From Bdellovibrionales bacterium (GTDB lineage Bacteria > Bdellovibrionota > Bdellovibrionia > Bdellovibrionales > JAUICD01): a stretch of 64,000 bases of DNA. Positions within the stretch are counted from its first letter, which is position 1, and every line of letters starts with the position of its first letter. Shown piece after piece: positions 19,981-47,173 of this stretch. The stretch is from NCBI GenBank assembly GCA_965262715.1, contig OZ253553.1, positions 2,784,001 through 2,848,000 on the forward strand, in the 5' to 3' direction. The position numbers were made by a program, and so were the translations under genes. Below the pieces are notes generated by a model. It made no database searches and had not been told where the DNA came from. It worked only from the letters and a program-made list of their open reading frames with translations.

Positions 19981-22134
19981 ATGAATTTTGTTGACGATAT
20001 TATACTTAATCCTATAGCTTTCAGTTTCAGTGTAATGATTATAATTTCGGCATTTTTTGGATACTTCAAACCAAGCAGAAGACTTCAAAGTATTAAAAAA
20101 AGGCTAGAAGAAGCTATTAAGCTACTTCCAAAAAAAGATCATAGAAATGAGTTTGCAAAAAATTACCAAAATATCATTAATGAAGATTTTAGCAGAGATG
20201 ATTCTATTTTCTCTTATCTTTGGAAGGAGTTTACAGAACAACTCATATATCCATCTCAAGAAGTTATTGTTTTTCAAAATAGTATTCGTCCAGAAAAGTT
20301 TTTCACTTTAAATCATATTCTTGGACAACATAAAATTAACTTAAGATGGCTTAATTCTTTGCCAGGAGTGTTGGTAGGATTAGGTGTATTGGGCACATTT
20401 GCAGGGCTGACTTGGTCACTCATATCTGTTGTTCCTGATCTGTCTGAAGGTGGAAAGAATCTCAATGATGCTGTTAAAACTCTTATCAAAGGATCAGGTA
20501 TAGCATTTGTTACTTCTATTGTAGGACTCTTTTCTAGTTTGATTTTTAATTTTTTCTCAGATCATAGAATGTCTAAAATACAAGGTTTAGTAGATGAATT
20601 CAATTCTAATTTAGAAAAGAGTTTAAAATTTATAACAGAAGAACATCTACTTACTTTGCATTTAAAAGAAATGTCTCAGCAAGGGAAATACTTAGAGAAT
20701 ATGGATGAGAAAATAGCTTTGAAGATAGGAGACATGACCAAACAAATAGGAATGGAAATTAAGAATGTTGTCTCAAAAAGTAACCAAAGTATGTCAGAAA
20801 ACTTTTTTACAGATATTGCTAATAAAATAGCAAACTCGATGGAGGGGTTTTCTAAACAACAAGCAGAAAATCTAAATAAAAACTTATCTATGTTGCAAGA
20901 TACTATTCCATCTTTAATAGAGCGTCTTGACAATTCTCAAAAACAAAATGAGCAAGCAACATCGGGTGCAATTAACAATCTGGCTTCTATAAGTACAGAT
21001 AATCAAAAACAATTAGATCAGAGAAATAAAGAGTTCTGTTTACATCTTGAAAAATCACAAAAACAAAGTGAAGAAAGTATGAAAGCTGTGATGCATAACA
21101 TGTTCTCTGCTCATCAGAATACTCAAAAACAGGCCATTGATACTATGCAGAGTATGAAGAGTGGTCTCGAGAGTGTTACATCGAACTTCAAACAGGGTAT
21201 GAATCAGACTTTCTTAAATTCATCAGAAGAACTTAAAAAACTTTTGGATAGCTCTAGCCAAGTGAATAGTAACATTTTAAAACAAACTAAGGATGCACAA
21301 ACAGTATATCAAACACATCTAGATCAAAAAAATAAAGAGTTCAATTTACATCTTGAAAAATCACAAAAACAAAATGAAGAAAATATGAAAGCTGTGATGC
21401 ATAACATGTTCTCTGCTCATCAGAATACTCAAAAACAGGTCATTGGATCTATTTTTAGCACTATGCAAGGTATGAGAGGTGATCTTGAAAATATCACATC
21501 AGATTTCAAGCAAGGCATGAATCAGACTCTTTCAAGCTCATCAGAAACACTTAAAAAGCTCTTAGATATTTCTATTCAAATTAATAGCAGTATTTTGAAA
21601 CAAACTAAAGATATACAAATAACTTACCAGAAACACTCAGATCAGTTTATAAGTAATTTGAACAAAGCAATAATAGAGGCTAAGGATATAACATCTAGTG
21701 TTAAAGCATCTGCTGAGGGTTTCTTTCAAGCTTCACATCAACAGGCTCAGGTTGCAGAAAAAAATGAACATCTTATTGATTCTTTTGATTCTCTATCTGA
21801 GCAACTTAGAAATATGTCAATTTCTGCATCTGATATGCTTCAAAAAACCCCTCAACTTATCACACAGATAGAGGCATCAAACCAATTTCTTAAAGATCTA
21901 TGGAATAGATATGAAAACAGATTTCAAGATGTTGATGAGTCTGCAAGTCATCTTTTTGAAAAAATCACTGAAGGATTGCAATTAGTTTCAAATCAAAGTG
22001 CTGAACATATTGAGCAGCTAAGTCAGCAATCTGCAAATGTTTCTAATCATTTTGCTCAGGCTGTTGAGCAGTTACAAGAAGCTATTGAGGAAATGAATGA
22101 CAGCAAAAACAGATCACCATTAAAAGCAAGTTAA
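19981..22134 (+). CDS. zorA: Zorya ZorA (MotA-like TM region plus long helical tail)
   Basis: PGVLVGLGVLGTFAGL and AFVTSIVG motifs; long coiled tail. Confidence 0.9.
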   Translation: MNFVDDIILNPIAFSFSVMIIISAFFGYFKPSRRLQSIKKRLEEAIKLLPKKDHRNEFAKNYQNIINEDFSRDDSIFSYLWKEFTEQLIYPSQEVIVFQNSIRPEKFFTLNHILGQHKINLRWLNSLPGVLVGLGVLGTFAGLTWSLISVVPDLSEGGKNLNDAVKTLIKGSGIAFVTSIVGLFSSLIFNFFSDHRMSKIQGLVDEFNSNLEKSLKFITEEHLLTLHLKEMSQQGKYLENMDEKIALKIGDMTKQIGMEIKNVVSKSNQSMSENFFTDIANKIANSMEGFSKQQAENLNKNLSMLQDTIPSLIERLDNSQKQNEQATSGAINNLASISTDNQKQLDQRNKEFCLHLEKSQKQSEESMKAVMHNMFSAHQNTQKQAIDTMQSMKSGLESVTSNFKQGMNQTFLNSSEELKKLLDSSSQVNSNILKQTKDAQTVYQTHLDQKNKEFNLHLEKSQKQNEENMKAVMHNMFSAHQNTQKQVIGSIFSTMQGMRGDLENITSDFKQGMNQTLSSSSETLKKLLDISIQINSSILKQTKDIQITYQKHSDQFISNLNKAIIEAKDITSSVKASAEGFFQASHQQAQVAEKNEHLIDSFDSLSEQLRNMSISASDMLQKTPQLITQIEASNQFLKDLWNRYENRFQDVDESASHLFEKITEGLQLVSNQSAEHIEQLSQQSANVSNHFAQAVEQLQEAIEEMNDSKNRSPLKAS
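21016..21640 (+). repeat. Internal tandem duplication (period 306 bp, 102 aa) in the ZorA tail
   Basis: LDQxNKEFxLHLEKSQKQxEExMKAVMHNMFSAHQNTQKQ at 21016 and 21322. Confidence 0.9.
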
Positions 22135-22158
22135 GTAAAGTCTATTTAGGAAATTTTT

Positions 22159-23031
22159 ATGGAGAAGGGTTCTCATTACAATCTTTGTATTAGTGATTTG
22201 ATTATGGGGCTTTTATTTATCTTTATCCTTGTTTTATTGAAATTTATGCTAGAATTTCAAAGTAAAAAAGATGACCTATCAAAACCTTTGGTAGAAAGAG
22301 GTCATATCATTAAAAATATTAAAAAAGAGCTTGAAAAAGAAGGTATCAAATCTGAAATTGATGTGAAAAATGGAGTCTTAAAATTATCAAATGTTCATTA
22401 TTTTGATAAAGGTCAATATGAGTTAAGTGAAAAAGGCCGAAAAGATTTTGAACAAATAAAAAAAATATTATTTGAAAATATTACATGTTATTCTCACTTA
22501 AATAGTCAAATCACAAAACAACAATGGCCTTCAGGTCTTGAAAATGAAGGACGATTAATTGAATGGCAAAGCCATTGTAGTAAAACTCATAAAAACAAGT
22601 ATGGATTAATTGATTCTATTTTAATTGAAGGTCATGCTGACAAAACACCTATATCTAAAACTGGCAGTTTATCGAAAATAGGTGTCAAAACGAATTTAGA
22701 TCTAGCAGTCAAGAGATCTATAATAGCTTTTCAAGCTTTATCCGATTACGAGGAAGTAAGTTCTGATGAAAAGATATCTGCTGGTAATTACCTTTTTGCA
22801 CTCACTAATAAAAAAGAAAAGCCATTATTTGGAGTGACTTCTTTTGGAAACTTAAGAAGTCATCATAATAAGAAAAGCCGCAATCCTGCACAAATAGAAA
22901 AAGATCAAGGCCAAGATAGGCGTATTGATATCCGTTTTGTAATGGGACAGCCAAAAAACCTTAAGAGCATATCAAATTTAAATAAGAAAAAACCAAAAGG
23001 ACCTTGCGAGGAAAAGCTCAATGGAAGATGA
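22159..23031 (+). CDS. zorB: Zorya ZorB (MotB/OmpA-like)
   Basis: ISDLIMGLLFIFIL TM with conserved Asp; IEGHAD, NLDLAVKRS, RRIDIRF. Confidence 0.9.
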   Translation: MEKGSHYNLCISDLIMGLLFIFILVLLKFMLEFQSKKDDLSKPLVERGHIIKNIKKELEKEGIKSEIDVKNGVLKLSNVHYFDKGQYELSEKGRKDFEQIKKILFENITCYSHLNSQITKQQWPSGLENEGRLIEWQSHCSKTHKNKYGLIDSILIEGHADKTPISKTGSLSKIGVKTNLDLAVKRSIIAFQALSDYEEVSSDEKISAGNYLFALTNKKEKPLFGVTSFGNLRSHHNKKSRNPAQIEKDQGQDRRIDIRFVMGQPKNLKSISNLNKKKPKGPCEEKLNGR

Positions 23032-24529
23032 AAAAAAAATAGAAGATCATCTTGGAAGAATAGATAGAAGTGAAACTTATCACTTAAAATCATTTTTTAA
23101 AAGAAATTATAACTTGAATTCATTAAATTCATGTATTGATAACCTTTGGGCTAAATTATCATCACCACTTAAAAAAAGTAGAAAAGAGATAGAAGGCAAT
23201 ATTAAAAGTATGGATAGAGTGGGTTGTTTTAATGAATCTAATAATTTTGAGGTTAAAAATTTAAGAGAAATTTATAATGAATATCTAAAGCATTTCAGGT
23301 TATACGGAACAATTAAAAATATAAGAAAACTAAGACCTTTACTTAGAATTTTATTTCCAAATAATAAAGAAGGGATTAGAAAAGGTTTATATAACAATCA
23401 AGATCAGTTTGAAGATTTTTTAGACACTTTAATTATAAAAAATAAACAGCTTCTATTAAAACATCTTATATCAGAACTTCTTTATCATTACCCTAAAGAT
23501 CAAACAGACTTGCTATTTAAACGTCTTAGAAAAATCTATTGTCATTTAGATCAAAATAAAAAGAGTCACCAAGTGTTTATTGAAGCTAACAGACAGTTTC
23601 AATTAATCGATGGAGAAGGTCCATCAAAGATTGCTAAAGAAGTAATGGATACAAATAAAAACTTGGATTTAACTTTAAGGAGTCTTTGGATAGGAGAAAG
23701 ACACTTATCTTGTGGTATTGGTCAAGAGATTGTTAAAGAGATTTGCTCATTAGCTCAATCTCAAAATTTGATTGAAGATAGTCAAAGCTTAGATCGTTTT
23801 TTAACATACTTTTCAGTCTCAGTTAAAACAGAGGTATATATAGTCAGGTATAAAGATGTTCGACCTATTGTAAAAACTCTTTTGGGTCCTTTTAAGTACA
23901 AAGTACCAAATAAGCTTCATAAAAAGAAAATCACAAAATTTTTAGATCAGCATGTGGGAGATCCTAGACACAAATCTGAAAAATGGATATCTATGCATGG
24001 AGAAAAAGAAATTTTCTTAAAGTGGAAAATAGATGAAACTATAAAAGATTTTTTAGAATTGCTTTCCTATACAGCGAAAAAAGATTTTGATGTTAATAGA
24101 ATGTGGAAATATAGAAAGGAATTTATTGAATACTATTGGAAGGAAAATCATATTAGTGATGCTTGGATTGTATTAGGTAGAAAGGATTATGAAAACAGAG
24201 ATAAATTTTTGAAAGAAGGGTTACATGAGTATGGACAATTGATTTCTGGAGGAACTTCTTCTCATTCTGCTCTACTTTTTCAAATAGGTGATCTAATTAT
24301 TTCTGAATGGAATTACAATGGAAAAGCAAGAATATGGAAAAGAAGCAATAGATCTGCACCAAAATTTTATAAGCAAGAATATCCCAAAGGAAATTTAGAA
24401 AAATATGCTAATAAAGAAGTTATCCATCATTATTCTGAAGAATATAGTTGGCAAAGAAAAATGAGTGACTATATAGAAAGTTACACTGGAATCACATGTC
24501 CTGAAGTTTTATCGAAAAAGTTTTATTAA
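23021..24529 (+). CDS. zorC: Zorya ZorC (EH-signature-like)
   Basis: Operon position; GDPR....W, MWKYRKEF, ISEWNYNGKARIW, HH...WQ motifs. Confidence 0.8.
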   Translation: MEDEKKIEDHLGRIDRSETYHLKSFFKRNYNLNSLNSCIDNLWAKLSSPLKKSRKEIEGNIKSMDRVGCFNESNNFEVKNLREIYNEYLKHFRLYGTIKNIRKLRPLLRILFPNNKEGIRKGLYNNQDQFEDFLDTLIIKNKQLLLKHLISELLYHYPKDQTDLLFKRLRKIYCHLDQNKKSHQVFIEANRQFQLIDGEGPSKIAKEVMDTNKNLDLTLRSLWIGERHLSCGIGQEIVKEICSLAQSQNLIEDSQSLDRFLTYFSVSVKTEVYIVRYKDVRPIVKTLLGPFKYKVPNKLHKKKITKFLDQHVGDPRHKSEKWISMHGEKEIFLKWKIDETIKDFLELLSYTAKKDFDVNRMWKYRKEFIEYYWKENHISDAWIVLGRKDYENRDKFLKEGLHEYGQLISGGTSSHSALLFQIGDLIISEWNYNGKARIWKRSNRSAPKFYKQEYPKGNLEKYANKEVIHHYSEEYSWQRKMSDYIESYTGITCPEVLSKKFY

Positions 24530-24538
24530 GGAGGATTT

Positions 24539-27500
24539 ATGGCATTTAAAATAGAAAATGGATTTATTTATTTTCAATTTCAAAAAGAAGAGCTTACAAA
24601 AGATATTGAGTGTATTTTAAGTATTGCTCAAGCAGGTAAATCAAGGAAAGAAAACATTATAACTGCTAAGATAAAAAATGAGCAAATAGCTGATTTGAAT
24701 ATTCATCAAATCAAAAAACTAGGACTACCTCCAGTTTATCCCTATCGTTTAAAGATCAGTACAAGGGGAAGGCCTACAACACCAGCTTTCTCTTATGAAA
24801 TAAAATTTTTAGGTGAAAGATCTAGGTCTTTTTTCCATTATAAAAGAAATGGCGTTTTCTTGGAGCTAGATGGTCAGTCATTTACATTAACAAACCCTCA
24901 TTTTAAATTTGTAGAAAACTTAGAAAAAATGTCCTCTAATATCAAGAATCCAGGAGAACGATTAAAACTTTGGTCACAAGTTATAAAAGATGTGCCAAAG
25001 GAAATTGCCTTAGATAATGTAAAACTTTTAGATTTTCAATTTGTCAAATCTGATCGTTTTTGCTTGGATAAGACCTCTGACTATGATTTTAAAATTGTTC
25101 CTCAATTAATTTATAAAAAAGAGAAAGATGAAGATGAGGAAAATCAAATATCCCAACAGCTTCCACAAGGCATATCCAGAGAATTCCAAGAGAACTTTTT
25201 AAACACAGAGAGTGTTGACCCTTACTATAAAGTTGGTAATTATTATATGCAGTTATCAGAACCTCTTAAAGAGTGTCTAAAGGTCATAAAGAAAATCAAT
25301 AAGCAGCCATTAGAAAAGAGATGGGCTTTTTACCAAAGCCCTATGGAAAAAATTAAAAAAGAAATACCAGAAAGTCTATCAGAAGACTTATTGGATGAAG
25401 TATTTTTTGAAACGGAGGAATTTAAAAGTGGTCGAATTTCCCATTTTGGAATTTGGATCCCAAAAATCGGTATTTATATTGATCCAGATGATAAAAACCC
25501 ATGGTTTCCAAAAGATGATTTTGGTATAGAAATAGAAGATAGCTTTTTTCACTTCAATCCAAATCAATTAGGTACCGTTATTGAACAGTTAGAACAGAAA
25601 AAACAAAATGGAGAAGATACTCTTATTTATGAAAATCAAGCCATTCCTGTCAATGATCAAGTGATTTCCAAGATAAAAGAAGTAAAAGATAAAATTACTC
25701 AAGAGATTGAAAAAATAAAATCTCAACAAGGTAAATCCACAAATAAATCTAAAAGAGAAGTTGCTATTATTAAGGATAATATTAAAGAGTTGGTATATGA
25801 AGATTGTAAAGAAAAACGTCCTTATCTCAAAAAACATGCGTGTATTCCTTCAGTATTAGAAACTAAGTTTATAAAATACCCTCATCAAAAACAGGGTTTA
25901 TTTTGGCTACAAGAATCTTTTATTCAAGGACTTCCTGGGAGCTTGCTAGCTGATGATATGGGACTTGGGAAAACCTTTCAGACTCTTGCTTTTTTGTATT
26001 GGTATAAAGAAAATGTTCGAAGTAAAAAGCCTATTCTTGTTGTTGCTCCTACAGGGCTTTTAAAAAATTGGCAAGATGAACATGATATGCATTTACATAA
26101 AGATAGAGGCTTAGGTCGAAAATATAAAGCCTATGGTGAGTCTTTTAGAAAAGACAGAAAAAACACTGATAGAGCAGTAATCAATGAAATACAAAGATCA
26201 GATTGGGTTTTAGCCACCTATGAGTCCATTAGAGATCATCATAAGGATTATTTTATTAAAATTTCTTGGGGAATTATTGTTTTTGATGAAATACAAAAAA
26301 TTAAAAGCCCTTATTCACTAGCAACAGATACATCAAAGGCTCTTGATAGTGAATTTTCTATAGGTTTAACGGGGACTCCTATTGAAAACAGCTTGACTGA
26401 TTTGTGGTGTATATCAGATTGTCTTCATCCTAAAATACTGGGCATATTAGAAGATTTTCATAAAAAATATATTAAAAATAAACATTCTATAAATGATATT
26501 CAAGATAGGCTTTCAAAGAATCCTGCATTTATGTTGAGAAGGTTAAAACGAGATATATTAAAGGATTTACCAGAAAGAAAAATCATTAAAGAAAAAGTAA
26601 ATATGACAAGTAAGCAACAGGAAATGTATGAAGAAGTGATGAGAGATGTAAAATGTAAAAAGTACTCCACTAGCCTAAAAGCTATTGTGTTTTTAAAGAA
26701 GTATTCAGTTTATACTCAAGATTCCATTGAAGATTCCAATGAAGAGTTTATTAATTCCAGTGCAAAACTTAAATTACTTTTTAAGTTTTTAGAAGAAATA
26801 AAAACTAAGAATGAAAAGGTGTTAATTTGCATTGAAAGTAAAAAACAACAAAAAAATATAAAGGGTATTTGTGATGCAAGATATGATCTTCAGGTCAATA
26901 TTATCAATGGTGATATAAGTGGAGAACGACGCAAACAATTTGTTGATGAGTTTGGAAATACTAAAGGCTTTAACATTATGATTATTTCACCTAGAGCAGG
27001 AGGAATTGGGCTTAATATTGTTTCAGCTAATCACATCATTCATTTGGAGAGATGGTGGAATCCTGCTGTTGAGGATCAATGCAATGATCGTATTTTTAGA
27101 ATAGGTCAAAAGCGTCCAGTTTCTATTTATTATCTCTTAGCTGTACATCCTCACTATGGAGAAAATAGCTTTGATATTGTCTTACATAATCTTTTAGATA
27201 AAAAAAGAAAGATGCGAGAACAGACTCTAATACCTTCTGAACCTAATAAATATGAGCAAAATGAATTTTGTAGAATGATCACACATGAAGAGCCTTATTA
27301 TAACAATGAAGGATCTTTTTATAACAGTGAAGAATGGAAAGCTTTGAGGCAGGAAGCATTTCGAGAATATGGCAGTCAATGCTTAAGGTGTGGAAATAAA
27401 AATAATCTTGATGTAGATCATGTAAAACCAAGATCAAAATACCCAGGATTAGAATTAGACTTAAATAATCTTCAAATTTTATGTAGAGAATGTAACTACT

Positions 27501-27571
27501 TAAAAGGTTGTAAAGATTCTCCTGAATGGGACTTTAGAAAAAGAGGGAAAGAAAAAAAGAAAGTAGCTTAA
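24539..27571 (+). CDS. zorD: Zorya ZorD-like SNF2 helicase with C-terminal HNH nuclease
   Basis: DDMGLGKT, DEIQ, TGTPIEN, WWNPAVEDQ; CLRCG..DVDHVKP..NLQILCRECN. Confidence 0.88.
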   Translation: MAFKIENGFIYFQFQKEELTKDIECILSIAQAGKSRKENIITAKIKNEQIADLNIHQIKKLGLPPVYPYRLKISTRGRPTTPAFSYEIKFLGERSRSFFHYKRNGVFLELDGQSFTLTNPHFKFVENLEKMSSNIKNPGERLKLWSQVIKDVPKEIALDNVKLLDFQFVKSDRFCLDKTSDYDFKIVPQLIYKKEKDEDEENQISQQLPQGISREFQENFLNTESVDPYYKVGNYYMQLSEPLKECLKVIKKINKQPLEKRWAFYQSPMEKIKKEIPESLSEDLLDEVFFETEEFKSGRISHFGIWIPKIGIYIDPDDKNPWFPKDDFGIEIEDSFFHFNPNQLGTVIEQLEQKKQNGEDTLIYENQAIPVNDQVISKIKEVKDKITQEIEKIKSQQGKSTNKSKREVAIIKDNIKELVYEDCKEKRPYLKKHACIPSVLETKFIKYPHQKQGLFWLQESFIQGLPGSLLADDMGLGKTFQTLAFLYWYKENVRSKKPILVVAPTGLLKNWQDEHDMHLHKDRGLGRKYKAYGESFRKDRKNTDRAVINEIQRSDWVLATYESIRDHHKDYFIKISWGIIVFDEIQKIKSPYSLATDTSKALDSEFSIGLTGTPIENSLTDLWCISDCLHPKILGILEDFHKKYIKNKHSINDIQDRLSKNPAFMLRRLKRDILKDLPERKIIKEKVNMTSKQQEMYEEVMRDVKCKKYSTSLKAIVFLKKYSVYTQDSIEDSNEEFINSSAKLKLLFKFLEEIKTKNEKVLICIESKKQQKNIKGICDARYDLQVNIINGDISGERRKQFVDEFGNTKGFNIMIISPRAGGIGLNIVSANHIIHLERWWNPAVEDQCNDRIFRIGQKRPVSIYYLLAVHPHYGENSFDIVLHNLLDKKRKMREQTLIPSEPNKYEQNEFCRMITHEEPYYNNEGSFYNSEEWKALRQEAFREYGSQCLRCGNKNNLDVDHVKPRSKYPGLELDLNNLQILCRECNYLKGCKDSPEWDFRKRGKEKKKVA

Positions 27572-34807: not shown

Positions 34808-34958
34808 AAGTTTTCCTTAACATTGTATAAAAAAATGAAAAGATCCTCCTTACTAAAAATAAACATACTTTTGAGGCAGTCAGCATTTTCTTGAAGGTGC
34901 AAACCTTCAGGCTGACTGCCCAAAAGTGATCAGAGATCAGTTTATTTTTAGTGAAACA
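34808..34958 (+). ncRNA. Structured stem-loop element, copy E1
   Basis: Nested stems CTAAAAATAAAC/GTTTATTTTTAG, GGCAGTCAGC/GCTGACTGCC, TGAAGGT-GCAA-ACCTTCA. Confidence 0.75.
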
Positions 34959-35174
34959 ATGCCTTCTGATTTACAATCCGTTTTTGGCTGGTCAGAGCGA
35001 TTAAAAGAGACTTTTGGTGCTGATAGTTTCAATTTTGGGCTAAATGTGGTAGATTTAAATCAGATATCTGATGAGGATATTAAAGATAAAGCTGGCGATA
35101 TAGCAAGTTTTTGTTTTGCATTCAAACATGTTTGGAATATGACACAAGCTAAGATCAGATCTGTGTTATTTTAA
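34956..35174 (+). pseudogene. Family-2 Rpn internal fragment
   Basis: Matches 36608-36820; aligns with the WNLPLSF...KKAFG region of family 1. Confidence 0.75.
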
Positions 35175-35347
35175 TTAACTCTGTCATGTCAGATAAATTC
35201 TATCAAGTTTTAACAGCCCTTGCTAATTTTCTGCCGATAGTTTCTATGTTCATAAACTATACTCTTTCCAAAAAGCTTATGCTAACTAGCAAGTAGTTAC
35301 ACAACTTAAATTATAGGAACTTATTGGAGTAGTATTAAATTAAAAAA

Positions 35348-35686
35348 TTAGGATGGCCAATGAATTATCTTTCCTTGAGTTGGAGAAATTGGATTGTCTT
35401 GCCAATGCTTAAGAAATTTTTCTACGTATCTTTTTCCTTTATATTGAGGAATTGTAATCAATACAATGGCCATACTAGAAAACTTCGTCATTTCTTTATG
35501 TGCGGATTTAGCAAAGAGGGTGTCTCTTGTAAGAATACAAGTAAAATCTGCATGACTTGCAGTAGATAAGAGTTCACCATTTTGCAATTCATTCCAACCT
35601 TGTTCATATGCCGTTTTGCATTCAATGCCCATTGATTTTAATGAGGAAACTAACTGTTGAGGAAGGTTATGATCAAGCAGCCACAT
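35348..35686 (-). CDS. DUF5615 PIN-like toxin
   Basis: MWLLDHNLP, GW..LQNGELL, ILTRD. Confidence 0.85.
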   Translation of the reverse strand: MWLLDHNLPQQLVSSLKSMGIECKTAYEQGWNELQNGELLSTASHADFTCILTRDTLFAKSAHKEMTKFSSMAIVLITIPQYKGKRYVEKFLKHWQDNPISPTQGKIIHWPS

Positions 35687-35909
35687 GATTTGCAGCAAAC
35701 TTTAGAAGTTCTGGTACACTTTCTTTAGGAAAGCCAGGGTAATCTTCAGAAATTTCTTCAGATGTCATTCCGATAGAAAGACATTCTAAAACTTGAGAAA
35801 CAGATATTCTAGTTCCTTTGACTGTTGGTTTACCACCAAGTAAGTCAGGATGGCAAACAACCCATTTGTATTCTGGATATGTTTTTATTAATTGTGTATT
35901 TTGGTCCAT
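35673..35909 (-). CDS. DUF433 antitoxin
   Basis: LLGGKPTVKGTRISV, EEISEDYP. Confidence 0.9.
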   Translation of the reverse strand: MDQNTQLIKTYPEYKWVVCHPDLLGGKPTVKGTRISVSQVLECLSIGMTSEEISEDYPGFPKESVPELLKFAANHVAA

Positions 35910-36147
35910 AGTTTATTCCATTTAGCTTTATTCATTACTTATAAGAGTACTAAAAAAAATGTGCTTTGTCAAAACCTAAAAACAATCAGAGACTTGTTTC
36001 GAGAGGGGGGGTTGTTTTTAGCCAAGCAATCTTTAAAAGAACAAGCTTTCATGTCCGGACTTTAAGCTTGACTGTCCAACTCTTAAGATAAAGTTTCTGT
36101 TAAATTTCCTTAAACTCTCTTAGAACCAACTTTTAATCAGTATAAAG

Positions 36148-36164
36148 TTGGCATTGCTTTTGCT
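36148..36164 (+). promoter_or_regulatory. Sigma-54 promoter of the second family-2 Rpn module
   Basis: TTGGCATTGCTTTTGCT; 36034-36361 duplicates 34630-34958. Confidence 0.75.
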
Positions 36165-36210
36165 ATTATAAATAGGCCTGAAACTTATTGTTAATTATTA
36201 ATGAATAAAA

Positions 36211-36361
36211 AAGATTTCCTTAACATTGTATAAAAAAATGAAAAGATCCTCCTTACTAAAAATAAACATACTTTTGAGGCAGTCAGCATTTTCTTGAAGG
36301 TGCAAACCTTCAGGCTGACTGCCCAAAAGTGATCAGAGATCAGTTTATTTTTAGGGAAACA
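36211..36361 (+). ncRNA. Structured stem-loop element, copy E2
   Basis: Near-identical to E1. Confidence 0.75.
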
Positions 36362-36444
36362 ACTAAATTAGCCTTTAAAAATAAAGATCGTTTTAGAAAG
36401 CTTTTAAAATTTGTATTAGGTTCTAAAAAGTAGAAAACTTAAAA

Positions 36445-36610
36445 AAGATTTCCTTAACATTGTATAAAAAAATGAAGAGATCCTCTTTACTAAAAATAAA
36501 CGGATTTTCTAGGCAATGACCTATTTGCTGATGGCGTAAGACCATCAGGGTCATTGCCAGAAAACTGCCAGAGGCTCGCCTCGAGAGGCAGGTTTACTTT
36601 TAGTGAAACA
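36445..36610 (+). ncRNA. Structured stem-loop element, copy E3 (variant with extra GAGGCTCGCCTC hairpin)
   Basis: GGCAATGACC/GGTCATTGCC and CTGATGG/CCATCAG stems. Confidence 0.75.
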
Positions 36611-37156
36611 ATATCCTCTGATTTACAATCCGCTTTTGGTTGGTCAGAGCGATTAAAAGAGATTTTTGGTGCTGATAGTTTCAATTTTGGGCTAAATGTG
36701 GTAGATTTAAATCAGATATCCGATGAGGATATTAAAGATAAAGCTGGCGATATAGCAAGTTTTTGTTTTGCATTCAAACATGTTTGGAATATGACACAAG
36801 CTAAGATCAGATCTGTGTTTGAGATGTGTTATCAAGATGGTAAGGATCCAAACTATCATGAGAATGCTGATATTTTAGGTAGATATATGCTTCAAGCTAC
36901 AAATTACCGAAGAGAGGAATTTGTAAAGATTGAAAATGAAGTTATTAAAGGTAAGGAGGATCAAATGATGAAAAGTACTTACGATCAATTGATTGATGAA
37001 GGGATGGAGAAAGGAATAGAAAAAGGGATGGAGAAAGGAATAGAGAAAGAGAAGGCAGAAGTAGCTTTGCGAATGTTAGAGCAAAATATGGAATTGCAAC
37101 TTATAGCCCAAACAACAAATCTTTCAATCCAACAACTTCAAAAACTTAGAAAGTGA
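36608..37156 (+). pseudogene. Family-2 Rpn C-terminal half; internal small ORF 36965-37156 intact
   Basis: (EKGM/I)n repeat, IAQTTNLS; SD AAGGAGG before ATGATG. Confidence 0.8.
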
Positions 37157-37169
37157 TTTTTTAAGATAC

Positions 37170-37605
37170 AGGCGATATAGCAAGTTTTTGTTTTGCATTC
37201 AAACATGTTTGGAATATGACACAAGCTAAGATCAGATCTGTGTTTGAGATGTGTTATAAAGATGGTAAGGATCCAAACTATCACGAGAATGCTAGTATTT
37301 TAGGAAGATATATGCTTCAAGCTACAAATTACCCAAGAGAGGAATTTGTAAAGATTGAAAATGAAGTTATTAAAAGTAAGGAGGATCAAATGATGAAAAG
37401 TACTTACGATCGATTGATTGATGAAGGGATAGAAAAAGGAATGGAGAAAGGAATAGAAAAAGGAATGGAGAAAGGGATAGAAAAAGGAATAGAAAAAGGG
37501 AAAACAGAAGTAGCTTTGCGAATGTTAGAGCAAAATATGGAATTGCAACTTATAGCCCAAACAACAAACCTTTCAATCCAACAACTTCAAAGACTTAGAA
37601 AGTGA
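37170..37605 (+). pseudogene. Tandem duplicate of the family-2 Rpn C-terminus; internal small ORF 37390-37605
   Basis: Duplicates ~36745-37160 with more EKG repeats. Confidence 0.8.
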
Positions 37606-38015: not shown

Positions 38016-38798
38016 TTATTTGGAGGATCCGTTCCATATTTTACTCACTTCTGAGATTCCCATTGTTGTTAATTCTCCTGTTTTCCATTTAGCTTCAAAT
38101 TCATTAGGTGATAAGTAACCTAATGAAGAATGTCGCCTTTTTTTATTATACATACCTTCGATAAACTTTGGAATACTTCTTAATACATCTTCAAAAGTTT
38201 TATACTCACACAGATGAACTTCTTCTCTTTTTAAAGAGCTAAAGAAAGATTCAACAAATGCATTATCCCAACAATTGGCTTTTCTCGACATGCTGATCTT
38301 AAAGCCTTTTTCTTTAAGCTTGTGGGTATAATCCTTACTGGTGTATTGGACACCTTGATCACTATGATGAATACATCCTTTAGCATTTGATCTCTGCTCT
38401 AAACTCATCTCTAAAGCTCCTAAACAAAGCTCTATGTTGATCTCTCTAGAAATAGCCCACCCTACAATCTTCCTTGAAAAAATATCTAAAATCACTGCTA
38501 AAAAAACAAAACCATCTTGAATCCTAATGTATGTGATATCTGTTACCCAAAGCTGGTTGGGTCTATTCACTTCAATGCCAAAAGTTAAATTCGGATAAAC
38601 TCGATTTGAATGTTTAGAATCCGTGGTTGAAACCTTAAAACCTTTGTAAATCAAAGCCTTTAAACCGTATTTCCGCATAATGCGAGCAATCCTCTTGTGG
38701 TTGGCTTTAATACTCTTCTCTTGCTCAAGTTCCAATTGAATACGACGTATTCCATACATCGGGTATTTACACTGTATCCTCTCAATCTGCTCTTTCAA
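38016..38798 (-). CDS. IS3 transposase OrfB (DDE)
   Basis: WVTDITY, HSDQGVQY, DNAFVESFF; frame is open upstream to the AAAAAAG motif at 38963-38969. Confidence 0.95.
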   Translation of the reverse strand: MKEQIERIQCKYPMYGIRRIQLELEQEKSIKANHKRIARIMRKYGLKALIYKGFKVSTTDSKHSNRVYPNLTFGIEVNRPNQLWVTDITYIRIQDGFVFLAVILDIFSRKIVGWAISREINIELCLGALEMSLEQRSNAKGCIHHSDQGVQYTSKDYTHKLKEKGFKISMSRKANCWDNAFVESFFSSLKREEVHLCEYKTFEDVLRSIPKFIEGMYNKKRRHSSLGYLSPNEFEAKWKTGELTTMGISEVSKIWNGSSK

Positions 38799-38869
38799 AT
38801 CAAAATCCTTTTGCTCTCGCTCTTGCTGCGAAAACTTCTTCTTGTAATAGTAGCTGCTTAAAGGTAATC

Positions 38870-39220
38870 CTAACGCTTTACACGTTTTTGAAATTGATCC
38901 AAATTCTTTCCAGTGATTACCGACGATCTCACGCTTTTCCTCTGCTGAAGCTCCTTTTTGGCCTTTTTTAAAAACTCGTTCTCTAGGCTCAGCTGTCCTA
39001 CCTTTGCCTGAAGAGCATATGCTTGTCTCTCTAGAGACCTCTCCCTTGATGAAGGGTTTCCCAAAGGTGTCCCTTGTTGATACTTCTTAAACCACTCTAA
39101 GATTGTCTGGCGATGAAGTTGATGCTCCCGGCAAATCTCTAACAAAGATCTGCCTTCATGCATCGATTTACAAATAGCTTCCTTAAATTCAACATTAAAT
39201 CGTCTTCTTACTTTGCCCAT
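38870..39220 (-). CDS. IS3 transposase OrfA
   Basis: RRRFNVEFK HTH; A-AAA-AAG -1 slippery site. Confidence 0.9.
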   Translation of the reverse strand: MGKVRRRFNVEFKEAICKSMHEGRSLLEICREHQLHRQTILEWFKKYQQGTPLGNPSSRERSLERQAYALQAKVGQLSLENEFLKKAKKELQQRKSVRSSVITGKNLDQFQKRVKR

Positions 39221-39319
39221 GATCTTCCTCCTGATCTTATAGCTTTTTATAGCTAAAATTCAGGAATCTCAAGTGAGTTACTTTATCACTTAACTCTCCA
39301 GTTTATGGGGTACAGACCA

Positions 39320-39928
39320 CAAACGTTTAAAACTCTTTCTGAAAGTTATCAAAGAAGAATTGAGAAACTCAAATTAGAAAACGAAAAGCTAGCCCATCTC
39401 ATAGCTAAAAATCCTTTAGCTGAGAAATTAGATAGTTTACTTTCTAAGATTAAAGATAATGAAGATCATCTCTCTCAATTAGAAGCTAAAAAGCAAGAAT
39501 TAGAAATAGGTTTACTCAACAAGATTACAAGTAAGAATATAGATTCTAACTTTATCTTGTCTGGTATTAAAAAGTTTCGCCAAGATAGTTTTCGTAAAGC
39601 CAAAGTTTCCAAGAAACGATCTATCATTCAAGAAGTTATCAAAGCTATTCATGTTCATCCAGAAAATGTCATTCAAGTTGATTTTTGGGGAAATGAACAC
39701 CAATCTAGAACCTCTAGAAAAAATTCCTTTCAGCCGGGAGTTGTATTACCTTTTCGTAAAATCGCAGGGCCTCTTGAAGCATCTTTCCATCAAAACAACT
39801 ATAAAAAAGATCGGTTTTCAGATATAAAAAAGGCTGCTGGACTTGGAACTTATGCCTTATGCCATAACGAAAATTTAATGGCCTTAGGTTCGTCCAATAT
39901 CAGAGATGGTCGGCACGACTGGATTTGA
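39320..39928 (+). pseudogene. C-terminal part of a probable large serine recombinase, truncated by IS3
   Basis: Coiled coil followed by KRSIIQEVIKAIHV...IQVDFW; reads antisense into the tRNA 3' end. Confidence 0.55.
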
Positions 39929-40093
39929 ACCAGCAAATCTCTTCCTCAAAATGGTCTCGCAAGCGACTTTCTGATTGTTAGCCAAGTGGGTTTTTATACA
40001 CCCTCTTTAAAAAGCTAACAATCTAGAAAGCATGACCATTTTGAGTATTTTATTATCATACGGATGTACGCTACCAAGCTGCGCCACGTGCCG
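39907..40093 (-). tRNA. tRNA-Pro-like gene (187 nt) with the anticodon region replaced by a ~110-nt hairpin element
   Basis: Acceptor CGGCACG/CGTGCCG-ACCA, D arm GCGC-AGCTTGGTA-GCGT, T arm GCTGG-TTCAAAT-CCAGT; no normal anticodon loop. Confidence 0.8.
39945..40059 (-). ncRNA. Structured stem-loop element, divergent copy E8 inside the tRNA
   Basis: CTCAAAATGGTC/GACCATTTTGAG, CTTTCT/AGAAAG, GATTGTTAGC/GCTAACAATC and side hairpin TCGC-TT-GCGA; same layout as E1-E7. Confidence 0.7.
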
Positions 40094-40101
40094 ATAACAT
40101 T

Positions 40102-41580
40102 CTAATCTTTTGATGTGTCTTTTACTCTCTGAGACTTATTATTAACTATTCTATCTATTTTAATAACTTGTTTTGCTCTTGCTATAGCTAAACTATTTGG
40201 AGGAACATCGTCTGTAATAGTAGATCCACTGCCTATAACAGATCCTTTACCTACCTTTATTGGAGCTATAAGTTGTACATCGCTACCTACAAAAACATTA
40301 TCTTCTATAAGAGTTTTATATTTTTTATGATCTTCCCGGTAATTGCAAGTGATTGTTCCGCAACCTATATTAACATTTGATCCTATTTCAACGTCACCTA
40401 AATAACTCAAATGAGAAGCTTTCACATGATCTGCAAAAATAGCTTTTTTTGTTTCTACAAAATTGCCTACTTTACAATGGTTTCCAATATGAGTTTCAGG
40501 TCGCAATCTAGCATAAGGACCAATCAAACTATGAGATTCAACAATAGCATTTTCCAAATAACTTCCTGCTTTGATTTTGACATAACAACCTATCTTAGAA
40601 TCACGAATAATAGAATTAGGCTCAACCTCACAGCCTTCAGCTATTTGGGAACCTCCTAAGATATAAGTGTTTGGATAAATAGTAGCTGTTGGCTTGATAT
40701 CAACATCATCTTCAATATAAGTACTTTCAGGATCAATAATCACCACACCCCTATCCATAAGTTGCATGGCCTTTTTATAAAACACTTTTTTTGTAGTTAC
40801 TGCAAGCTCTTGTTGCGATTCAATTGGATAAGAAATATCTTCGTTCAAAGAGAGATAAGAGGCTTTTTCTGGATTTTTTTGCAAAAACTTAAAAAATATA
40901 CCCGCTAAATAGCTTGTTAAATCATCTGCTTTATATGAATGAGATAGTGAAAATATATTATTAACAATTGTTTTTTTAAAGATATAAATATTCGATCTGA
41001 GCTTTTTAGAAAAACTGCTAAGCTTGTCACTCTTCGCTGCTTCTTCAATCTGATGCTTTAAGCCTGAGTTTTGAGTAGGTGCGGCTATTGTTAAATCCTT
41101 AGCAGACTTCTGAAAGCTTTTTATGATAGATATCAAATCATTGGTTTGTAGAAGAAAACTATCTGCACTCACAAATAAAATGATTTGACTATCACATTTG
41201 GTCGTTAATTCTGACTTTATGCTATCTACTACATTTTTTAAATGACTTTGTTGAGTATAAGAAACAAGGTATGATGATAAAGACTCTTTTATTTGTGAAT
41301 ATGTATCTTTTGTAGTGACAACATTTATATCTAAGTCAGTAGGTAGCTCCTGTTGGTCTGACAATCCTCTTAAAGCTTTGACAACCCTCAGGATCATTGG
41401 AATACCTGCAACAGGATGCATGTATTTTGAAAGAGGAGAATGCATGTTAGTATCCTGATCAAATGCTAATATAAATGCGGTAAGCTTTGTTTTTGAAAAA
41501 GAATTTGATGTTTTCATTGTGATTTTCCATCTATTTTTGGGTTTGTGCTTGTTTGTTGTATGGTAATCTATTATTTTCAT
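40102..41580 (-). CDS. glmU: GlmU-like protein (acetyltransferase domain intact, uridyltransferase domain divergent)
   Basis: IGPYARLRP, VGNFVETKK, SHLSYLGD, NIGCGTITCNY, hexapeptide repeats; start uncertain. Confidence 0.85.
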   Translation of the reverse strand: MKIIDYHTTNKHKPKNRWKITMKTSNSFSKTKLTAFILAFDQDTNMHSPLSKYMHPVAGIPMILRVVKALRGLSDQQELPTDLDINVVTTKDTYSQIKESLSSYLVSYTQQSHLKNVVDSIKSELTTKCDSQIILFVSADSFLLQTNDLISIIKSFQKSAKDLTIAAPTQNSGLKHQIEEAAKSDKLSSFSKKLRSNIYIFKKTIVNNIFSLSHSYKADDLTSYLAGIFFKFLQKNPEKASYLSLNEDISYPIESQQELAVTTKKVFYKKAMQLMDRGVVIIDPESTYIEDDVDIKPTATIYPNTYILGGSQIAEGCEVEPNSIIRDSKIGCYVKIKAGSYLENAIVESHSLIGPYARLRPETHIGNHCKVGNFVETKKAIFADHVKASHLSYLGDVEIGSNVNIGCGTITCNYREDHKKYKTLIEDNVFVGSDVQLIAPIKVGKGSVIGSGSTITDDVPPNSLAIARAKQVIKIDRIVNNKSQRVKDTSKD

Positions 41581-45220: not shown

Positions 45221-47173
45221 CCTGAGTTTGACAGTTGCGAAAATAAAGTTGAGTTATTTTAGTTAGTTACAGTGGATGTGTGATTTTGTACCACTACATT
45301 TTGATTTTGTGGTAGAGATTTAAGAGATTGTTTGTAGGTTTAAGTAGATTCAATTTTAAGTTGTTTTGATGGGATCTTAACTCCTATAGCTTTAAATACA
45401 TCAGCGTTATTGCCATAAATATCTGTTCTTATCCAAATAGTTTTGTTTTTATATCTGACAGGTATAGCTCGTACTTCTTTCAGCTTTGACATAGCTTCCG
45501 CTACACTCAATGGCCTTGACTTTATTCTCTTGTCTGTGATCGCTTTATCTTTTAATGTGATGTTTCTTTGATGTAACTTCTTTGCAAAATAAGCCTCACA
45601 TAAGTAAGATAAAAAACACACAACTAAATGACCTAATATCCTCTTATCTGTCCAGTGGAACATAGGACGTGTCTTTAATGTACCCTTCAACTCTCTAAAT
45701 GAATTCTCTACCTTCCATAATTGCTTATAGTTCATTATAATCTCTTCAGAGCTTAAATCTGTGTTTGTAATTATTCCAAAAAAACCATCTGTCCTCTCTG
45801 ATTGTTCTATAGCTGACTTATTTAAAGTAGGCTTGCCTTTACTCTTAGGATGAACAATATACTTCTTATAATTACTATTAGATAAAAAAGATCTTGTGCT
45901 TATGGACTTCTTTGATAATTGAGCTTCTATCTTAGATAGAATATCTTCTCTTACTTTCTTATCTCGTTCTGCTCTCTTTCTCGACCAGGTAATTATACAA
46001 CGATCATTATTATAGCTTGTCTCGTATATAGCTAAATCTTCATTTATAAATTTAAAATTCTTTAAATTGTATATCTCTGCATGACGATCCTTTAATAAAC
46101 CTAGCTTTAATCCTACTATAAATTCATCTCCCTTTGCTTTTAATGATTGGAGATTCTCATTAGAAAATAAACCTCTATCTCCTACTAATATAAATCTTCT
46201 GATCTTAAACTTCTTTTTTAGCTTCGTCATAACTGAAGGTATTGTTTTACCTTCAAATGTATTCCCAGGATAAACATCAAAGCCTAAGGGCATACCTTCT
46301 GTATCTACTAAAAGTCCAAATACCACTTGTGTGCAATCACTCCTCTTCTCTTTGCTATAACCAAACCTTCGAAGATTATCTAAATCCTCACGGGTACTCT
46401 CAAATCTCAATGTCGTTAAATCATACAAAATAACATCACACTCATTGAAAAAACTTAATTGAGACTTACCTCGCATATAAAGAGTCTTCTCTATATCTTC
46501 TTTATGCTTACTTAGAATATCTAAAGAACGATAAATGTCTTGAAGATGAAGCTCCCCTTCTAAAAAATCAGGATAAAATAACTTCTGCCAGTGTGAAAAT
46601 ACTTTAAGCTTAGAACAAGGCTCTACAAAACGACTTATAACCAATGTAAAAATAATCTTAACAAAATCAAATTGCACTTTACGATGCTTCTGTTTTAAAT
46701 CTGTTAATAATCTATAGAGATTTAATTGTTTAAAAATAGTATCTATTATAAGCAAAGGACCTAAAATAAAAGTGTCTTTTACATCAATCTCTTTTAATAA
46801 CTTACTAGCAGGAATTATCTCTAACTCTTTAGATAATACTTCTAGAAGCTTCTTCAAGTTAACTTCCTTATCCGCGGCTTTACCTAAAGACATTAGAATC
46901 CTTTGCTTCACTTGAGAACCTAATCTGTAGCTCTCAACAAGATGATAATATATGTCTCCTCTCGGATTTCTTGTAGACCTTATGAACATAAAAATACATT
47001 ACAAGAAAAATATAAAAAATAAAAGAAAATAAGGTATATGACGCGTAGTGTATGATAAATAAGTACACTACACTTTTTGACCAAAATACAAACACAATAA
47101 CCGCTAATGACTATAAATACAACATTCCTTGAAAAAAATATCACGAAAATTCAAATTAAGTGTCAAACTCAGG
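45221..47173 (-). mobile_element. IS1634-family element
   Basis: IRs CCTGAGTTTGAC/GTCAAACTCAGG. Confidence 0.95.
45340..46989 (-). CDS. IS1634-family transposase
   Basis: YDLTTLRFE, GYSKEKRSD, VGDRG, LWKVENSFRELK, RPMFHW. Confidence 0.95.
   Translation of the reverse strand: MFIRSTRNPRGDIYYHLVESYRLGSQVKQRILMSLGKAADKEVNLKKLLEVLSKELEIIPASKLLKEIDVKDTFILGPLLIIDTIFKQLNLYRLLTDLKQKHRKVQFDFVKIIFTLVISRFVEPCSKLKVFSHWQKLFYPDFLEGELHLQDIYRSLDILSKHKEDIEKTLYMRGKSQLSFFNECDVILYDLTTLRFESTREDLDNLRRFGYSKEKRSDCTQVVFGLLVDTEGMPLGFDVYPGNTFEGKTIPSVMTKLKKKFKIRRFILVGDRGLFSNENLQSLKAKGDEFIVGLKLGLLKDRHAEIYNLKNFKFINEDLAIYETSYNNDRCIITWSRKRAERDKKVREDILSKIEAQLSKKSISTRSFLSNSNYKKYIVHPKSKGKPTLNKSAIEQSERTDGFFGIITNTDLSSEEIIMNYKQLWKVENSFRELKGTLKTRPMFHWTDKRILGHLVVCFLSYLCEAYFAKKLHQRNITLKDKAITDKRIKSRPLSVAEAMSKLKEVRAIPVRYKNKTIWIRTDIYGNNADVFKAIGVKIPSKQLKIEST

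Follow-up and report, generated by a model that had tools for sequence, protein, structure and literature searches.

The closest described counterparts of the locus reported here are the TLRs of E. coli, which PMC8144298 describes as gene-less units, one or several in tandem, that lie downstream of a tRNA gene and close with a copy of that tRNA's 3' part. Our locus lies in a 64,000-nt stretch of a Bdellovibrionales genome (the window; genome G000, 2.94 Mb in a single contig). It is a chimera in which the front of a tRNA-Pro(GGG) gene is joined to a hairpin repeat unit and a duplicated tRNA tail. The unfused layout is seen in C11, a contig that was binned with genome G004 and probably represents a sister species of G000 (about 90% identical at the locus). 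Units of the TLR kind, ending in a copy of the tRNA 3' end, were found downstream of the tRNA gene in C11 and at the tRNA-Pro(TGG) locus of G000; at the chimera, the upstream gene is truncated. The present units differ from the TLRs as that report describes them. First, the copied tail is 28-31 nt long and covers the whole T arm, compared with 18-19 nt in E. coli. In addition, the unit body belongs to a genome-wide hairpin family. Finally, at the chimera the unit has become fused to the front of the tRNA, and no intact gene remains.

Partial tRNA genes are also left by integrative elements (PMC9897764; Islander, PMC4383910). Our locus resembles the cases described there in its tRNA-like 3' fragment, its integrase remnant, its defence island and its miscalling by tRNA finders. 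In those accounts, however, an intact gene has been restored in addition to a spare fragment, whereas here no intact tRNA-Pro(GGG) exists and the fragment has become attached to the true 5' end. A motif search of G000 found the GGG-type front and tail only at the chimera locus. The tail occurred once and there was no intact gene, so that the restored tRNA with a displaced fragment typical of an attR was not seen. The integrase at the tRNA end was represented only by the last third of a large serine recombinase.

The Rickettsia palindromic elements (RPEs) are known from the tmRNA and RNase P RNA genes (PMC2229807, PMC1458961). They resemble our unit as hairpin repeats of 100-150 bp that occur in hundreds of copies and inside a structural RNA gene. 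As presented in these papers, RPEs are insertions and may be neutral to the host RNA; in contrast, essential tRNA sequence is missing here and a deletion best explains the join. Hundreds of hairpin repeats per genome are also described for the Ssn nucleases with their NTS/SRM repeats (PMC11893778), but no single-domain GIY-YIG gene was found in the five genomes searched here. In the engineered tRNA scaffold of PMC3753655, the acceptor stem, D arm and T arm are kept and a long structured RNA replaces the anticodon stem-loop. Unlike that scaffold, the chimera is natural and accidental, has no closing anticodon stem, and its maturation is putative. Most likely, it is a young pseudogene that resembles the engineered scaffold by accident. 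The part of the literature covered by our search held no description of this hairpin family or of such a tRNA-repeat fusion.

Anatomy of the chimera

A sequence-only reading of the window had proposed a tRNA-Pro-like gene whose anticodon arm is replaced by a structured element. We confirmed that the tRNA-Pro-like shell is real (Table 1): the minus strand encodes a 7-bp acceptor stem with C1-G72, A73, an encoded CCA, and the sequences of both the D arm and the T arm. The 5-bp anticodon stem, the 7-nt loop with U33 and NGG, and the variable loop of a canonical tRNA-Pro are missing. The join had been placed after U33. We found instead that the tRNA sequence ends at nt 30 and that CCGT is the start of the repeat leader. 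Foreign sequence makes up 129 nt (nt 31-159) and stands in place of 19 tRNA nt, among them the variable loop. The duplicate tail (nt 160-187) comes from another copy than the tRNA front (nt 1-30).

Table 1. Features of the chimeric locus and its flanks (window coordinates)
Feature	Position	Strand	Remark
Whole chimera: tRNA-Pro(GGG) front, repeat unit and duplicated tRNA tail	39907..40093	-	187 nt
Original tRNA-Pro(GGG) nt 1-30: acceptor 5' strand, D arm, 3 anticodon-stem bases	40064..40093	-	28/30 identical to the intact C11 gene
18-nt leader of the tRNA-Pro-type repeat unit	40046..40063	-	Fusion junction 40063/40064, 1 nt microhomology
101-nt long hairpin, divergent repeat-family member without the family 5' motif	39945..40045	-	RNA nt 49-149
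10-nt repeat-unit tail, in place of the anticodon-stem 3' strand and variable loop	39935..39944	-	
Duplicated 28-nt tRNA tail: T arm, acceptor 3' strand, A73, CCA	39907..39934	-	Identical to the intact-gene tail and both duplicates in G004:C11
glmU, synteny anchor; stop codon 8 nt upstream of the chimera	40102..41580	-	
Large serine recombinase, C-terminal third (residues 369-590 of the 590-aa relative P0001)	39257..39928	+	Reads through the tRNA tail
IS3-type transposase ORFs adjoining the truncated recombinase	38016..39220	-	

The predicted fold of the chimera has an energy of -68.1 kcal/mol (z = -6.46, 200 shuffles). Pair probabilities were predicted to be 0.82-1.0 in the acceptor stem and 0.78-0.88 in the T stem. 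The D stem reached about 0.4, and a hairpin made by the junction competes with it. The long hairpin hangs on 18 and 10 unpaired nt, with no continuous stem from position 27.

Probable ancestral layout and fusion junction

Comparison of the locus beside glmU with its ortholog in a relative had been proposed as a check, and C11 provided that ortholog. This contig is syntenic on the glmU side: identity is about 90.5% in the 5.2 kb that start at the junction and about 90% in another block of 8.4 kb. Next to glmU, C11 carries an intact 77-nt tRNA-Pro(GGG) gene followed by two identical tandem units. Each unit consists of a spacer, the leader and the hairpin and ends with the tRNA tail, copied from the T stem to CCA (28 nt). 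Removing 138 nt from this layout (47 nt of tRNA and 91 nt of spacer) yields the 187-nt sequence of G000, leaving over two D-loop changes, one substitution and a 2-nt insertion. A single nucleotide is common to both sides of the junction. The 90-nt C11 spacer had no real match in G000, and no displaced 3' tRNA half was found in that genome.

The ancestral layout is based on C11, which is probably a co-binned contig because a second, distant glmU is present in G004, where repeats are otherwise almost absent, and on one 271-nt contig of sequencing run X6. The latter comes from a third lineage, distinct from G000 and C11. In it, the leader is preceded by other sequence and a tRNA tail, not by a tRNA front, and the unit differs from that of G000 by 10 substitutions and 2 gaps in 154 nt. 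Contigs C11 and C1 of G004 both carried the repeat motif. When 41 genomes were queried with the 187 nt, the matches fell on ordinary tRNA-Pro genes of relatives, nearly all of them GGG, and covered their first 30 nt and last 28 nt. We inferred the direction from intact to fused because relatives, including G001 of the same genus (assembly 90% complete), have the intact gene. The repeat family is abundant in G001, and no such fused unit was found there.

In our assessment, the locus is most likely a former tRNA-Pro(GGG) gene whose first 30 nt became joined to a hairpin unit and a duplicate tail; a recent loss of about 138 nt is the likely cause, and a non-decoding pseudogene the likely outcome. 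The starting point would be the layout seen in the sister contig, an intact tRNA-Pro(GGG) beside glmU with tRNA-linked repeat units behind it. Next, tRNA nt 30 would have been joined to the leader in the G000 lineage with almost no homology, removing the 47 nt of tRNA and the 91 nt of spacer. The duplicate tail would have re-formed the acceptor stem and T arm by accident, and a tRNA-Pro(TGG) covering the four Pro codons would have made the loss tolerable. The RNA is probably co-transcribed with glmU and perhaps trimmed by tRNA-processing enzymes; it would have no anticodon loop and no selected job. The proposal that the element had inactivated the tRNA was thus supported as to the inactivation but not as to an insertion route, as the repeat already lay downstream of the intact gene with a duplicated tail. 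As a pseudogene, the locus matters little. It would be a clean, dated example of losing a dispensable isoacceptor, in which a tRNA-linked repeat gives a spare tail and one join removes the anticodon arm.

The position of the junction raises the question of a programmed breakpoint. The junction base is the base at which the leader starts in C11 and at the tRNA-Pro(TGG) locus of G000, a boundary identical in three contexts. This suggests an element-defined end, since a random deletion would rarely fall there. In a search of 384 order genomes, this leader subtype occurred in five copies in two genomes (3 in G000 and 2 in C11), all at tRNA-Pro loci. Furthermore, G000 and C11 are about 90% identical to the left of the junction but 98% identical to its right, where the unit's roughly 128 non-tRNA nt differ by 1 substitution and 1 indel. 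The non-coding divergence of the two is 9.5% (248/2614), against which the unit stands out with P about 3e-4. Windows of 128 nt had a mean of 10.8 differences, and 1 of the 123 windows had two or fewer. An ordinary orthologous repeat copy, counted by eye, differed at about 26 of 150 positions. As the simplest reading, recent lateral exchange may account for this high identity, and selection is also possible.

The recombinase beside the chimera has to be considered here as well. The remnant is 93% identical to the 590-aa protein and is cut off beside the IS3 element; its N-terminal part was not found in the G000 genome. The same serine-recombinase tail lies behind a tail duplicate at the tRNA-Pro(TGG) locus, so that it abuts a tRNA tail at both Pro loci, and relatives of the recombinase read through the 3' ends of tRNA and tmRNA genes. 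Ten metagenome loci of the recombinase family carried no hairpin unit.

Together with the shared boundary, the Pro-specific leader and the rise in identity, these tails favor an element-directed or integration-linked replacement. The unit would have been joined by its own mobilising enzyme, or C11-like donor DNA with a tRNA-Pro island would have arrived aberrantly. This is a variant of the mechanism proposed above and overlaps with it, and its product would still be a dead tRNA. We regard it as possible but unlikely. Just 1 nt is shared at the junction, the displaced 3' tRNA half is absent from the genome, and the recombinase at the locus is truncated. In addition, the repeat-rich G001 had no match to a Y1 transposase, a reverse transcriptase or a large serine recombinase. 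At the TGG locus, an 11-nt repeat bounds the island at the CCA end rather than at the anticodon stem. It was the CCA end that the island used, and the island does not account for the junction in the anticodon stem.

Decoding of proline codons

An ARAGORN check for other genes serving the Pro codons, proposed with the sequence-only reading, showed that among the 34 canonical tRNA genes of G000, the single tRNA-Pro has anticodon TGG. The Ala, Gly, Thr, Val, Ser and Leu boxes each keep a GNN and a TNN gene; the Pro box is without GGG. We then counted Pro isoacceptors in 151 order genomes, most of them drafts, by exact matches from the anticodon to the T loop. The Pro(GGG) pattern was present in 90 genomes (61 without) and the Pro(TGG) pattern in 130 (21 without). 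TGG without GGG was found in 53 of the 151, including G002, G003 and most members of genera g11, g12 and g22, a number to be read as an upper bound, given the draft state of most genomes and the variants that escape the GGG pattern (G102, G025). Several tRNA-Pro(GGG) genes of the order start with CTG rather than CGG, and in genus g31 the gene is patchy (8 of 22).

In E. coli, a modified UGG isoacceptor is reported to decode each of the four Pro codons (PMC4519876). Since the CmoB family had no match in G000, G002 or G003, the E. coli route to four-way decoding is at most putative in G000. A TrhO-family gene is present in all three genomes. By analogy, the loss of GGG may have been tolerated since tRNA-Pro(TGG) could read all four Pro codons. 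Among the 24,968 Pro codons in 1585 long ORFs of G000, CCC accounts for 7.2% and CCT for 56%. In 149 aligned Pro codons of G000 and C11, CCC occurred 3 against 5 times, numbers too small to tell.

Possible transcription and retention of the RNA

The gene begins 8 nt past the glmU stop codon, which makes transcription and maturation plausible. A promoter scan gave 13 promoter-like sites compared with 8.1 +/- 2.4 expected, none of them before the chimera, and a terminator scan found none. The intact arms and the single assembled form fit a young pseudogene, but they also fit a retained RNA. Such a tRNA-scaffold RNA would be co-transcribed with glmU, matured at its ends, shielded as a tRNA is, perhaps weakly prolylated via G72 and A73, and would act as a decoy or regulator. 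The predicted acceptor and T stems and the short distance to glmU are in line with this. According to PMC3753655, E. coli processing factors recognise engineered scaffolds with an insert in the anticodon stem. PMC11229370 reports one ProRS for which G72 and A73 outweigh G35 and G36, and some E. coli TLR RNAs are described as transcribed and bound by Hfq and CsrA (PMC8144298).

We nevertheless consider retention improbable. The fused form was found in 1 of 384 order genomes, that of G000, and the unit is unfused in C11 and X6. The D stem is weak and has the junction hairpin as a competitor, and the lack of a continuous stem from position 27 sets the RNA apart from engineered scaffolds. For the same ProRS, a single change of G35 or G36 already costs 8- to 54-fold as reported in PMC11229370. 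Moreover, the sole substitution in the G000 hairpin breaks the pair nt 90-107, which is A-T in C11 and C-G in X6. In the comparison made for this substitution, the unit fold was -46.1 against -51.6. The hairpin of the X6 lineage shows two double-sided changes, one of them at this pair. The pair-breaking substitution, a single event, points weakly to relaxed constraint.

A combined form of these ideas is that a Pro-specific repeat subtype with a defined 5' end joins the anticodon stem of its target tRNA, giving a stable, end-matured, possibly prolylated 187-nt RNA that replaces tRNA-Pro(GGG). This seems to us improbable. Should the RNA turn out to be both stable and charged, the engineered tRNA scaffold would have a counterpart in nature. 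If it were retained as a scaffold, the locus would be a snapshot of the birth of a tRNA-like RNA, as tmRNA-like molecules may have arisen.

The hairpin repeat family

The family was collected from G000 by iterated nhmmer, which gave 406 hits and 343 non-overlapping copies of at least 70 nt. A typical copy is about 145 nt long and consists of a conserved 5' motif and a long hairpin. The 5' motif occurs in 302 of 344 hits; it is present at the tRNA-Pro(TGG) units and absent from the chimera and C11. The homology of the central hairpin to the dispersed family, claimed from the sequence alone, was supported by a profile match at E 1.4e-7, with 32.9 bits against a family median of 68 (rank 326 of 343). 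Its closest other copy in G000 is 67% identical, compared with 81-100% for the non-local neighbours of 40 random copies. Repeat-motif matches numbered 698 in G001 versus 222 in G000.

These figures also bear on the proposal that the chimera is the expressed master copy that seeded the family. Transcription and protection by tRNA-like ends, both inferred, would speak for it. However, the low rank and identity, the missing 5' motif and the larger, fusion-free family in G001 largely refute this reading, and we give it hardly any credence.

The family is associated with tRNA genes. A repeat copy lies within 300 bp of 12 of the 34 tRNA genes versus 6.3% of 5000 random positions, a contrast that is overstated because the null positions are genome-wide and not intergenic. 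A duplicate of the upstream DNA comes after the last copy at 15 of 164 loci; the shifted controls gave 0 and 1. Behind tRNA-Pro(TGG) in G000, the same leader and hairpin precede a 30-nt copy of that gene's tail. Partial tRNA duplicates flank tRNA-Arg(TCT), tRNA-Ser(GCT) and tRNA-Trp in G000 and both Pro genes of G001. Because the TGG locus and the Arg, Ser and Trp genes show partial duplicates, such debris is routine in G000. In wider searches, the leader pattern had no match in metagenome contigs. The pattern of hairpin end plus T arm matched one locus in genome contigs (L038, on the same contig as C11) and none in viral contigs, and blastn against phages gave no match.

A mobilising enzyme of the family was not found among the candidates considered. 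For a Y1 transposase (REP/REPIN-RAYT) and a reverse transcriptase, G001 had no Y1_Tnp match and no RVT_1 match despite its 698 motif matches, nor was a large serine recombinase found in G001. Tyrosine recombinases number two per genome, and those of G000 have no repeat within 5 kb. IS1634 as the cognate IS of a MITE model was rejected because its ends are unlike the repeat. Ssn was not supported because no single-domain GIY-YIG was found; each of the five genomes had one match, in frames of 612-653 aa, and the G001 frame is UvrC-sized. The point of real interest is the repeat family itself.

Detection by tRNA and RNA finders, and assembly of the junction

The expectation that standard finders may miss the locus was borne out. 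ARAGORN without intron search did not call it in the window, and Rfam at gathering score gave no match on it. With the Rfam threshold relaxed to E up to 10 on 39700-40300, there was still no match on the locus and no intron family on the insert. ARAGORN with intron search on the genome miscalled the locus as tRNA-Lys(TTT) with a 109-nt intron. A perfect-looking tRNA shell thus remains that annotation tools miss or take for an intron-containing tRNA-Lys.

That ARAGORN can draw such a tRNA-Lys is the one point for an intron-containing tRNA whose insert is spliced out to give a working molecule. As had been noted from the sequence, no excision restores an NGG anticodon: among 696 single excisions leaving 72-95 nt, ARAGORN called 237 tRNAs, none with a Pro anticodon. 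In the Lys product, a Lys anticodon and a mismatched stem would go with a Pro acceptor, and the genome already has a normal tRNA-Lys(TTT). The insert folds as one hairpin without an Rfam intron match, the sister contig shows that the true anticodon arm was deleted, and this arm is absent from the G000 genome. Splicing is therefore very improbable. The chimera is neither a canonical nor an intron-containing tRNA, nor does it fit a standard attR fragment.

Contigs assembled from runs X1 (depth 2.8), X4 (10.2) and X5 (14.9) spanned 39884-41200 with no differing letter and no other joint. These runs represent two samples from two studies, X4 and X5 being from one sample, and one run is possibly the source of the assembly. 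The fused form was the sole form assembled in the two samples. A misassembly had been named as a possible refutation, and the repeat-rich neighbourhood and the tandem layout of the sister contig could suggest that an intact tRNA was collapsed with a repeat unit; this is scarcely tenable, because the contigs cross the junction without differences and 1 nt of microhomology gives an assembler nothing to collapse on.

Other features of the window and of related tRNA loci

Farther downstream of the locus lies a stretch of IS elements and defence-like genes. A putative Zorya-like four-gene cluster (window 19981-27571) was recognised from translations. It comprises a ZorA/ZorB-like pair, a third gene and an SNF2 helicase with a C-terminal HNH domain. 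Three hairpin-repeat copies lie over the starts of truncated Rpn-like transposase fragments (window 34853-37605). An IS1634-family element with long, variable target duplications occupies window 45221-47173 and about 20 other sites; the copy in the window splits a gene and duplicates more than 100 bp.

The tRNA-Pro(TGG) locus of G000 (G000:C1:937316-950900, outside the window) carries, behind the tRNA gene, two tail duplicates, a leader-type hairpin unit, the serine-recombinase tail, a 10.5-kb island and a second identical unit. The 11-nt repeat that bounds the island repeats the CCA end. In G001, tandem copies of the first 45-50 nt of the tRNA stand before both tRNA-Pro genes (L005, L023 and L058). 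Upstream of the intact tRNA-Ser(GCT) gene of G000, six copies of its nt 1-38 are spaced with a 431-bp period (G000:C1:858165-860841), and a repeat copy lies 17 bp from this gene. The intact tRNA-Trp gene comes after four near-copies of 89 bp in tandem, which lack CCA and have a changed anticodon loop (G000:C1:2198524-2198955).
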